Assembly: GCA_964589775.1 (NCBI GenBank)
Contig: CAZPUN010000064.1
Span: 30,001 to 62,000 of the forward strand
Source of the DNA: an uncultured archaeon
Lineage (GTDB): Archaea > Asgardarchaeota > Thorarchaeia > Thorarchaeales > CAZPUN01
DNA length: 32,000 bases
Direction: 5' to 3'
The notes beneath the pieces are model-generated. The model was given only the letters and a program-made list of their open reading frames with translations. It searched no databases and was not told the DNA's origin. The number at the start of each line of letters is the position of its first letter. Within the stretch, counting starts at the first letter, position 1. Both the position numbers and the translations under genes were made by a program. This document shows, piece after piece, positions 18,704-24,750 of this stretch.

Positions 18704-19066
18704 CTAATAGCCCCACTGTTTTCCAAGTTCGCTATGGTACCATTTTGAGCCTCGTCTTGTAAGCTTATACACATCGCCGATTTGAACAACATAATCCATG
18801 GCAATCATAGATTCCAGTTGTGAATATAGGCTTGCTTCACTCACTCCAAGGCGTTTAAGTAGTTGCTGGAAGGTTAGTCCATTCTCGCGGGCGAGTTGTT
18901 GTGCAATATCAAATCTGTGAGCACGTTTAGTATCTCGTCTTTCAATTATTGCGCCGCAGTTTGTACAGATCGTGATACCTTTCATTTCATCTCGTGCTAC
19001 GGACCTTGAACCACAAACGGGACATACGCGATTTGAGAATCTTAACGCATTTCGACCCATAATCAT
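18704..19066 (-). CDS. TFIIB-type zinc ribbon fused to a winged helix-turn-helix
   Basis: CPVCGS...D...G...CTNCG.II, then GLTFQQLLKRLGVSEASLYSQL..M...YV......YKLT..G. Start may be ATG 19060. Confidence 0.75.
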   Translation of the reverse strand: MIMGRNALRFSNRVCPVCGSRSVARDEMKGITICTNCGAIIERRDTKRAHRFDIAQQLARENGLTFQQLLKRLGVSEASLYSQLESMIAMDYVVQIGDVYKLTRRGSKWYHSELGKQWGY

Positions 19067-19145
19067 GCCTCATTTAACTTTCGAATAAACATGTGTAAAA
19101 TAAACAATAAAAATTCAACGATACAACGAATTTTATTTCGAAGAC

Positions 19146-19673
19146 TCATTTTTCTTCTTGGGACATCATTAGCATTGCAAGTTTTGAGAAGAACTTGTCA
19201 ATGTCAATGATGAATGGTAAATATTTGCTGGGTCTTACAGAGTCTCCATCGATTTTTACAAGTTTCATTTTTTCGAGTTCTCGAAGGTCGTCATATACGC
19301 CTCTTTTAGATTTCTTACGATGTTGGGCTATTTTATCAATTTCTACTGCATTTCCCGTATCGTGAGTCAATATTAGCACATACATCAGTGTAGCTGCAAG
19401 ACGCGCTGGAAGGTTTAAACTGACGACATCATCAGGTGGCTGTATGTGTTGAATATACCACACTCTATAATTTGGGTCGAATTTTAATTTTAGTCCGATT
19501 GGCCTTAGATAGCGTTCCAGAATGTTCAATAGGCTTAGAACCTTTTGATATCCCATGATACCTTCAAGTCCTAATAGTTCCTGTAAATTTTCGATACTTA
19601 CTCCGGGTGGGTCTGTGCTTGCAGAAAGGATAGACATGATACGTGCAATTTGTGAGTAGCTTTTCGGGATCAT
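19146..19673 (-). CDS. Kite subunit (ScpB/Nse1-3-like tandem winged helix)
   Basis: ARIMSILSAS..PGVSIENLQELL...GLKL, then L.ARLAATL..V...IAQHR......DLRELEK.KLV; translationally coupled to the kleisin (ATGA overlap). Confidence 0.78.
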   Translation of the reverse strand: MIPKSYSQIARIMSILSASTDPPGVSIENLQELLGLEGIMGYQKVLSLLNILERYLRPIGLKLKFDPNYRVWYIQHIQPPDDVVSLNLPARLAATLMYVLILTHDTGNAVEIDKIAQHRKKSKRGVYDDLRELEKMKLVKIDGDSVRPSKYLPFIIDIDKFFSKLAMLMMSQEEK

Positions 19674-23200: not shown

Positions 23201-23734
23201 TTCATTGATCTGTATTCGGAATTTCTGAAGTCCCGTTCCCTCTTCAATAATATCTCGGACCGCAACAGGTTTTAAATCGCCAAGCAAATCTACGTTTCCC
23301 TGCGAAATAAACATAAATGGGTTATCCGGATTTATGTTCATTGACGAAACGAGCTCTTCAACTTGAGATGCCTTCACTCGCCGTCCATCAACATAGAAAT
23401 AGAGTAATCCGTTCTTCGTGATTTTTCTCATAATTGAAATGCGCTTTTCACCTGTCCATAATATAACTTCAACTTCCGCCTCATTTGTTCCATCGCGAAT
23501 AAAGCTTCGCCAATTTGGATATCGTTCATCTCTTTGATTGGAGCCTAACGCAAATTTTACTGCCTGAAAAATTGCAGATTTACCCGCTCCATTATGCCCG
23601 ACAATGACATTATACTGAGGTTCGAGATAAATGGTGCCCTCTGCATGGCTTAAGAAATTCTTAAGTCGTACGGATTCTATATACACTCGATTATTAATGG
23701 GTGTACTCGTTTTTAGCTCTGCGGAAATTGTCAT
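20300..23734 (-). CDS. smc: SMC ATPase, Smc5/6-like
   Basis: LKNFLSH, Walker A GHNGAGKS, Q-loop FISQG, two long coiled coils around a hinge (VKGPI...AIE), signature SGGQQ, Walker B FFDE, D-loop LD, terminal QFVVLTP. Confidence 0.93.
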   Translation of the reverse strand: MTISAELKTSTPINNRVYIESVRLKNFLSHAEGTIYLEPQYNVIVGHNGAGKSAIFQAVKFALGSNQRDERYPNWRSFIRDGTNEAEVEVILWTGEKRISIMRKITKNGLLYFYVDGRRVKASQVEELVSSMNINPDNPFMFISQGNVDLLGDLKPVAVRDIIEEGTGLQKFRIQINEEESRIADTKTRIDKLTADRKFIELKLDNLQESMKRLIKKRELKARIKKLERESIFSELEHFSNLYEDMKKELGELESSLEEIELRIKEISALIKEIDGQIIQLETRQKELSEKKGSIKSQIITLKEKMKQYKEEIKSLINENDSLVSENHDFEKEIKFLESKKKGNTQILKQLEAKIMGKRKELAHLQDSLDKIQEDMHKFLEWEKKRNAANKELQDAEYERKQIESKLKSKKDRIKTIEQYLKSIEADIGTVFKSITDLDDRELAKREIAIKDEIERLRIRQLNERSKLNDLEKRARNLREKLENLEDKIPEPIKKFQAELEKYQLESVKGPIITEISFDDSLATAIELLFDKRVLLGFVTTDENDFKLLHKIRAKAKADCCIFLLRGEPLPIPDTSIISKVEGPSEILAVLNDYMGEVQLVKTESTLLKTALKVEGKFISPMGRIIESRRTIIIDYPSMKEQGLISVSQIEKELKANEREQKKTNKAITKISQDIEKLNEEYSEIRFIRRQLPKIRSKLIQKEKYIAEIRNIRKEIEPLKEQLLQAEIKSEEKRKKLREIEQQIPEGFEKLERKKIRIEKQIEKIRITIRKLAKEIQDKESEIRVIENKIDLTTHKVMQNESRIKEIQQKLNSQNQYITELNDTIKGLETDLELITAELDKIDENIKSLNEQRVKNNNKSLEYKYSRDTKFKEHIIMLNQLSKWSHKIENLKEKIKRESLERPPKIMPYEEIIHEIERLNIELSTYDDVDESIEHKKLELAQELNRIDKLTSSLRNEISDALKALEKLREDYKRELTDVLFKIEYEVNDILSNVSFDGKIQLKIIEPESDNTDELGVQVSASIRDSPYKPLTAASGGQQTLVAFSLIIALQRFNFVPITFFDELDIYLDPAYTELVSQIIRNESKKTQFVVLTPGKSLRFLEHADKVIGVTNPRDVNVSIIINSPKIIETDSGIKILAEEQAGT

Positions 23735-24750
23735 TTATCTCCCCCGACTAATCTCTCAATTGTATTGAGTTGTCGTTTGGCAGCTGCAAGTCTTTCAATT
23801 CTTTTTCGTGGTGGTCCAATCAGCAAGAACGGATACTTTGCAAGTATTTCTTGATCCTTTTCATCTAGTGGAAAGCCGTCGTTTAAGTTTTGGATCACCC
23901 TATGTACCTGATTCGGATTTTCACTTACAGCCATTAAATAATATTGCTCTATCAATTCCTCGGGTATTAATTGCTCAATTAATCTGGCAGGTGGGTTGTC
24001 TCTACCTTGCCCCCATCTACTTAAATTCATCCTATGATACTTTTGGGATATTGGCAATACATTATTTCTAATAATCGAAATAAGGGATATATGCTCTTTC
24101 TTGCTTTTCACTTTCACATATTTTATCAAGCGGTTTAAATCTCCATATGACCAGCCTTCTGTAAGATTAACGGCATCTGCTAATTCTCCCGCTCGTTCTT
24201 CAAAAAATTGTTTAAGTAGATTTTCTCGATCTTTATCATCTGGTGGTGGTAATGGAATGTGCAAATCAAAGCTGCTGAGTACACCTGCATCTATCTTTTC
24301 AGGATTTGAAGTTTGGGCAATAGTTATAATTTGATTATCTTCAAGATTAGCACTGCTAAGCCATTCATATAATTTAATTGCATTTATTGAACTGCTTGGT
24401 GCTATATCTTCAAGTCTGGGAAGGTATAATATACATGGTGCATTGGTATTCGCATATGTCATCAAGGCGTCTAACTTGTTTTTCTCAATAATTTCACCTA
24501 ATTGAAAAGTAACAAGTGGTAATTCTAGCGTCTTTGCTACTTTTTCTGCGATTGTTTGTATTGGTTCTCCCGGTAAAGAGATAATTAAAAAAGCTCCGTG
24601 AAATTCTCTCTTATCCTCCGGTGAATCAATATCCGTAAGTAACTCGATGATTTCATTTACGATCCTGTTTAATCCACCGATTAGAGACGTCTCTCTTATT
24701 CGTTCTGGAGAAAGCAGCCCAAAGTTTTCCCCAATTACCTCTTCTGTCAT
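23731..24750 (-). CDS. Degenerate (probably inactive) classical AAA+ domain protein
   Basis: Colinear with an AAA module (IGGL, APCILY, P..ID...L..F...PPPD..DR, TEGWS..DL), but Walker A reads SLPGEPIQT, Walker B reads LYLPRLE, and the Arg finger is absent. Confidence 0.78.
   Translation of the reverse strand: MTEEVIGENFGLLSPERIRETSLIGGLNRIVNEIIELLTDIDSPEDKREFHGAFLIISLPGEPIQTIAEKVAKTLELPLVTFQLGEIIEKNKLDALMTYANTNAPCILYLPRLEDIAPSSSINAIKLYEWLSSANLEDNQIITIAQTSNPEKIDAGVLSSFDLHIPLPPPDDKDRENLLKQFFEERAGELADAVNLTEGWSYGDLNRLIKYVKVKSKKEHISLISIIRNNVLPISQKYHRMNLSRWGQGRDNPPARLIEQLIPEELIEQYYLMAVSENPNQVHRVIQNLNDGFPLDEKDQEILAKYPFLLIGPPRKRIERLAAAKRQLNTIERLVGGDK

Follow-up and report, generated by a model that had tools for sequence, protein, structure and literature searches.

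We analysed a window of 32,000 nucleotides from an uncultured archaeon of the order Thorarchaeales (Asgardarchaeota; GenBank assembly GCA_964589775.1, contig CAZPUN010000064.1, positions 30,001 to 62,000 of the forward strand). An operon in this window encodes an SMC protein, a kleisin and a kite protein, and is led by a gene for a degenerate AAA ATPase. The AAA gene is an undescribed part of the locus, and its product is probably a fourth partner of the SMC ring. The operon and the gene that follows it comprise:

24750 to 23731, minus strand: AAA-like gene, 339 amino acids (PF00004, E 1.7e-8), with a classical AAA fold and dead ATPase motifs; a classical-clade AAA part at residues ~20 to 245 is followed by a conserved C-terminal helical domain of ~80 amino acids (~262 to 336)
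23734 to 20300, minus strand: second SMC ATPase (SMC5/6-related), 1144 amino acids, arranged as head, coil, hinge, coil and head
20296 to 19670, minus strand: kleisin (ScpA/Nse4-like), 208 amino acids, identified through its C-terminal winged helix, which resembles ScpA in profile comparison
19673 to 19146, minus strand: kite, 175 amino acids, a tandem winged helix with the ScpB/Nse1/Nse3/JetB fold
19066 to 18704, minus strand: Zn-ribbon/wHTH gene, 120 amino acids, a TFIIB-type Zn ribbon plus a winged helix-turn-helix (wHTH)

A preliminary description of the window had noted that the first four of these genes are tightly coupled and that the fifth follows in the same direction, and the spacings it gave are present in the sequence: ATGA overlaps join the AAA gene to smc (23731 to 23734) and the kleisin gene to the kite gene (19670 to 19673), the gap after smc is 3 base pairs (bp), given a GTG start, and 79 bp precede the Zn-ribbon gene. 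The gene order is identical in 20 of 20 relatives within the order, so the arrangement is not due to chance; a promoter and terminator scan gave signals at chance level. The Walker A, Q-loop, signature and Walker B/D-loop motifs of the SMC protein (at residues 46, 142, 1035 and 1060) are all intact, and the protein also has a hinge and two coiled coils. The C-terminal winged helix of the kleisin matched ScpA in a profile search (4i99_C, E 3e-4), and the kleisin also aligned with the ScpA of its own genome (hhalign probability 82%, E 1e-5). The kite was modelled as a tandem winged helix that matches ScpB, JetB, MukE and Nse1/Nse3, and members of its family match PF04079 (best 2.8e-13).

The AAA gene lies directly upstream of this smc in 53 of the 53 loci with upstream sequence, which come from ten Asgard families and two named metagenome-assembled genomes, with a spacing that is typically 0 to 30 bp. 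The AAA-led loci include those of Promethearchaeum syntrophicum (DSAG12_00496), L. ossiferum (NEF87_002455), Freyarchaeum and Helarchaeota. The linkage expected from the preliminary description was found widely in the survey, which covered Asgard genomes. Genes outside the four-gene block of AAA, smc, kleisin and kite vary between lineages, and none of the nine canonical smc loci examined has an AAA gene in front. Neither the main text nor the supplement of van Hooff et al. (10.1101/2024.01.07.573240) mentions an AAA gene before an archaeal smc, and no description of it was found in the literature on Asgard SMC, kite and AAA proteins, subscription journals lying outside the coverage.

The AAA protein matches Cdc48/p97/VAT profiles (E 1e-36), and its model (predicted local distance difference test score, pLDDT, 80) is closest to p97/CDC48, Vps4 and Trip13 (best Z 17.0, root-mean-square deviation (rmsd) 3.9, 216 residues aligned), with both the AAA alpha/beta domain and the lid present. 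The Walker A lysine, the acidic DE pair of Walker B and the arginine finger are all missing from the window protein, and the Walker A lysine is kept in only 3 of 42 aligned family members. This decay is graded: the member P0096 (MFW9991787.1) has all motifs intact, those of Freyarchaeum, Helarchaeota and family f16 keep Walker A only, and those of the Thor, Loki and f7/f8 lineages keep none. Among the dead forms the tail is more similar than the ATPase core (28% versus 13% identity between Thor and Loki, 35% versus 13% between Thor and f7/f8, and 43% versus 26% between the window and other Thor proteins). The C-terminal helical domain is thus about twice as conserved as the core, a pattern suggestive of a binding function that has been kept. 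Within the genomes searched, the tail domain was confined to this locus, and a search with the tail of P0096 returned P0096 itself alone. The domain matched no named fold; the Atlas yielded only the Thorarchaeota cluster to which it belongs and a second cluster that carries no name, which does not imply a novel fold. In three loci of Helarchaeota f26 and of f16 (L061, L069 and L070) the AAA-led SMC is basal in its clade and has a head near that of canonical Smc, and the AAA protein has a different tail and, in L061, an N-terminal coiled coil.

In a phylogenetic tree, 13 operon AAA proteins fell on one side of a branch separating them, on long branches, from Cdc48, PAN and Vps4 (support 99/97). 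We rejected the reading of the gene as a Vps4 paralog, since the operon AAAs branch apart and an ordinary CdvC gene is present elsewhere in the window. The family shares fold and sequence homology with the classical AAA ATPases (Cdc48/p97/VAT, PAN, Vps4 and IetA), whereas the window protein has a single AAA domain and no N-domain, has lost the catalytic motifs, and belongs to a family with its own C-terminal helical domain and its own branch. The intact P0096 protein scored best to the IetA model, with 204 bits versus 164 for CDC48 (cut-off 510; the control Vps4 gave 124 versus 276), and IetA was also the best NCBIfam match of the window protein (32 bits, below the cut-off of 510). Other members score to CDC48 or PAN as well as or better than to IetA, and we treat the IetA scores as a lead on the possible origin of the AAA gene only. 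The IetAS defence system has an adjacent S8 peptidase gene, and no S8 peptidase was found among the flanking genes scanned.

The core of the operon is already known. TACK and Asgard archaea are described as having operons of SMC5/6-related smc, kleisin and kite genes in addition to canonical ones (van Hooff et al., 10.1101/2024.01.07.573240; see also Yoshinaga and Inagaki, 10.1101/2021.05.15.444277 / PMC8665677), and genes 495 to 497 of P. syntrophicum were assigned as such an operon (10.1101/2024.01.07.573240). The homolog of the window operon in that organism is DSAG12_00497 to DSAG12_00499 on the plus strand, which are the same three genes: they lie 318 open reading frames (279 to 338 by cut-off) ahead of the canonical smc on the minus strand, DSAG12_00820, in agreement with the published numbering of 495 versus 810. 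The window SMC and DSAG12_00497 share one clade (support 98/96) in an SMC tree that mirrors the host families and that contains no eukaryotic SMC5/6 sequence. By these sequence comparisons, the window core is an ortholog of the published P. syntrophicum operon and is not new. Consequently, the idea of a wholly new SMC system was dropped, and the proposal of an archaeal SMC-kleisin-kite complex of the Smc5/6 type was upheld as SMC5/6-related through this orthology. The separate canonical smc-scpA-scpB that the preliminary description had suggested looking for was found on another contig (G000:C57:42871-47720), beside roadblock and small-GTPase genes, and its Smc shares 24% identity with the window SMC. 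Within the Thorarchaeales, the host probably belongs to a family that is sister to the main one. Like the window operon, the published ones consist of smc, kleisin and kite in this order and lie in genomes with a separate canonical smc-scpAB; the papers do not mention the upstream AAA-like gene, its decay series, the link to MoxR and VWA genes described below or the fact that a Thor clade has lost the operon. Homolog searches with the kite and SMC proteins returned only canonical SMCs beyond the Asgard members; a metagenome scan added one further Thor-type locus, and a contig scan with a single SMC protein gave one locus, which was irrelevant.

Comparison with eukaryotic Smc5/6 gave mixed results. 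A profile of the N-terminal head scored 82 bits to human SMC5 and 77.5 bits to yeast Smc5, versus 32 and 40 bits for the canonical Asgard Smc profile; the score to Rad50 rose as well (from 47 to 75 bits). The hinge and the C-terminal head scored best to canonical Smc and SMC3. The kite model was likewise closest to ScpB (Foldseek E 1e-5; Z 11.1, rmsd 4.2, 144 residues aligned) and matched Nse1-Nse3 at a lower level (E 1.5e-3; Z 9.4, rmsd 6.5, 149 residues aligned). Because the profile tests are mixed and the tree lacks SMC5/6 sequences, the label SMC5/6-related rests on the published papers. The eukaryotic complex (Smc5-Smc6-Nse4-Nse1-Nse3 with Nse2 and Nse5/6) shares the architecture of SMC, kleisin and kite, but the window operon has one SMC gene and one kite gene, presumably forming homodimers, has no RING or SP-RING ligase, and has an accessory protein of the AAA fold where that of Smc5/6 is an alpha-solenoid. 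Canonical Smc-ScpAB shares the smc-kleisin-kite order and a kite of similar fold, but it is encoded by a separate paralogous locus with no AAA gene in front. Wadjet (JetABCD) and MksBEFG share with the window operon the SMC-kleisin-kite ring and dispensability; they differ in gene order, in the vertical inheritance of the window operon and in the JetD/MksG nuclease. As the preliminary description had stated, no JetD-type nuclease is present: a domain scan found no JetD/MksG Toprim nuclease among the window neighbours, and none occurs in related loci. The window operon proteins, the kite included, gave no match to JetA or JetB profiles. An identification as Wadjet was rejected for want of JetD.

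A natural deletion separates the genes that go with the complex from the one that does not. In genus g5, this smc and the kite, AAA and MoxR genes are missing from four genomes that are 87 to 96% complete, and a fifth genome has them all. The loss is a clean 9.2-kb block running from kite through kleisin, smc, AAA and MoxR to VWA (absent in L110 to L113 versus present in L114), and the flanks on both sides show 92 to 95% protein identity. Since four genomes have lost the whole block, the SMC complex is dispensable and not essential. In these four genomes the Zn-ribbon gene lies ~100 to 135 bp from a glutamate-synthase-like gene, which in the fifth genome lies past the 9.2-kb block. The Zn-ribbon protein is kept there at 93 to 95% identity, as are the products of the flanking metabolic genes, and its gene is therefore independent of the complex; in L113 a serine replaces the first cysteine of the retained protein. 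Furthermore, at E<=1e-12 the Zn-ribbon/wHTH gene was detected in 62 of the 67 genomes from the order and in none of the 184 other genomes. In every relative within the order the gene does follow kite at a distance of 40 to 80 bp, including those where kite is inverted or apart from the kleisin gene, an arrangement that could suit a fifth, Nse2-like Zn protein of the complex. Its confinement to the order and its survival where the complex was lost make such a subunit highly improbable, and we rejected the suggestion that it is a dedicated subunit. It is an order-specific neighbour, and the likeliest reading is a small transcription factor whose place behind kite is fortuitous.

Other features of the window and its surroundings are as follows:

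25519 to 27216, plus strand: MoxR-type AAA+ ATPase, divergent from the operon and beyond the coordinates of the preliminary description
31260 to 32000, plus strand: start of a VWA-domain gene, the MoxR partner, 579 amino acids, crossing the window end (G000:C64:61260-62999)
24922 to 25359: CGGC-domain gene, with AAA on one side and MoxR on the other, only in the window genome
3577 to 4782: ordinary Vps4/CdvC gene, which served as a control

The domain scan of the flanking genes identified the CGGC protein, MoxR, the Zn-ribbon/wHTH protein and a dihydropteroate synthase. MoxR and VWA genes flank the operon throughout the order (L023 to L046 and L114), sit ahead of it in the same direction in f7/f8, and were deleted together with it in genus g5; in the window the two are split by an inserted gene of 1164 amino acids. 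Transporter or other genes lie between kleisin and kite in several loci of a set comprising L028, L030, L031, L033, L086, L034 and L116, and in L034 the kite and Zn-ribbon genes are inverted, so transcription of the kite gene can be separate from that of smc. In f11 and f19 (L074 to L079) a divergent smc (~1070 amino acids), kleisin and kite are followed by genes for the primase large subunit and for a ThiF-family protein; these loci lack the AAA gene, and a canonical full-length Smc did not turn up in one homolog search of these genomes. The Freyarchaeum operon (L066 to L068) has a short SMC of ~835 amino acids and adjoins E2-like, E1 (ThiF) and zinc-protease/RING genes, a setting reminiscent of the ligases for ubiquitin and SUMO in eukaryotic Smc5/6. 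P. syntrophicum carries a third full-size, canonical-type smc (1197 amino acids; L107) near scpB and a VWA gene, besides its smc-scpA-scpB with an Smc of 1493 amino acids. A candidate third SMC ring on contig C50 (L088, 11066 to 13463) was rejected, its 465-residue SMC-like protein being Rad50-like and adjoining Mre11; Rad50-like proteins of 430 to 470 amino acids occur across the order.

These observations led us to weigh the role of the AAA protein. We give about even chances to an accessory SMC ring with the AAA-fold protein as a fourth dedicated partner, non-catalytic, bound through its tail and descended from an active remodeller. The gene identities, the orthology, the AAA linkage, the motif decay, the conserved tail and the co-loss are observed; we infer the binding, stoichiometry and regulation of the partner and the loop extrusion and cellular role of the complex. 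The proposal that the AAA protein is a dedicated subunit held in that a dead AAA is tightly and widely linked to this smc, while its physical membership has weak support from structure prediction. Two kite copies with the window AAA protein scored 0.59, the highest of three controls giving 0.00, with contacts agreeing between runs at 52% at least and a partner pLDDT no lower than 73. Of the pairs used to judge the mark, 58 of 80 solved ones and 2 of 110 mismatched ones attained it, and scores of 0.60 or less at or above the mark came from 7 solved pairs and both mismatches. Several points weigh against the fourth partner. The score lies in this weak zone, where a pass is wrong more often than right unless the pair is likely beforehand, and the prediction was built on our own alignments, so it lends weak support and raises the odds of binding a little. 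Seven more divergent smc-kleisin-kite copies (in f11 and f19, with one in f27) have no AAA gene upstream, and a full-length AAA homolog was not found in four f11/f19 genomes (81 to 91% complete) in which the positive control was found. The absence looks like loss, because the f11/f19 SMC nests inside the clade of the window SMC in the tree, and the ring can exist without the AAA protein. In addition, the 53 loci are related by descent and are not independent counts, and the co-loss in genus g5 is one contiguous deletion and one event.

The same f11/f19 loci would suit an AAA gene that is co-transcribed with the operon while its product stays off the ring, the link being operon inertia or shared regulation. 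We regard this as unlikely, given that the position is kept in all 53 loci though every outer neighbour changes, that the tail domain is confined to this locus in the searched genomes, and that the gene was lost with the operon. A nuclease-free defence against plasmids or viruses, by Wadjet-like loop-extrusion sensing or Smc5/6-like silencing, with an AAA protein drawn from an IetA-type anti-phage ATPase, would fit the dispensability of the operon in a clade, the fast evolution of the SMC, the IetA matches of P0096 and the window protein, and the implication of eukaryotic SMC5/6 against viral DNA (10.1101/2024.01.07.573240). It seems quite improbable, however, since the SMC tree follows the host families, the position is fixed among housekeeping genes in the 20 relatives, neither JetD nor an S8 peptidase is present, the kleisin has no PADLOC match and the kite no JetB match, and the other AAA members favour CDC48 or PAN at least equally. 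The dead AAA could also couple the ring to the MoxR-VWA pair, which would supply the lost ATP-driven step; the placement of the pair around the operon, ahead of it in f7/f8, and its deletion in genus g5 agree with this. Against it, Loki-type loci have a dead AAA and no MoxR-VWA nearby, the VWA gene of P. syntrophicum adjoins a canonical-type smc, and the window pair is separated by an insertion; we hold such a coupling to be very doubtful.

SMC proteins in general assemble into rings and loop DNA. In the fourth-partner reading, the kleisin would close the SMC homodimer into a ring, which would carry a kite dimer and use the ATPase of the SMC heads to capture and loop DNA. Canonical Smc-ScpAB would handle chromosome segregation, and since a whole clade has lost the complex, the SMC5/6-related ring would be an accessory genome-maintenance machine acting in repair, at stalled forks or on odd DNA. 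The ancestral AAA protein may have been an active classical remodeller, probably loading or stripping the ring; in the Thor, Loki and f7/f8 lineages it would have lost the use of ATP and persisted as an adaptor or regulator without catalytic activity. Through its conserved C-terminal helical domain it would dock on the complex, the kite dimer being the likeliest site, in a role comparable to that of Nse5/6 and not homologous to it. A further possibility, plausible though short of even odds, is that the Asgard forerunner of eukaryotic Smc5/6 had four parts, among them a dedicated classical AAA remodeller that loaded or unloaded the ring via the kite dimer, and that this motor has decayed to a pseudo-ATPase subunit in most living lineages.

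Overall, the core of the locus is known, the AAA protein is a well-linked and probable partner that had gone unreported, and the Zn-ribbon gene had been wrongly included. New here are the mapping of the AAA-led operon onto the published one, the deletion test and a weak complex prediction in a divergent family. The archaeal SMC5/6-related complex is seen by its describers as a route to the original function of Smc5/6 (10.1101/2024.01.07.573240). The cultured P. syntrophicum (DSAG12_00496 to 499) and L. ossiferum (NEF87_002455) carry the AAA-led operon, and intact and dead versions of the AAA protein coexist among the lineages. We know of no AAA-fold subunit of an SMC ring, and this would be the first. 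If the reading is right, the pseudo-ATPase subunit would be an SMC accessory factor of a kind unknown in any described SMC complex, and the conserved fourth gene would belong in any reconstitution of the archaeal SMC5/6-related complex, which has so far been predicted but unstudied.

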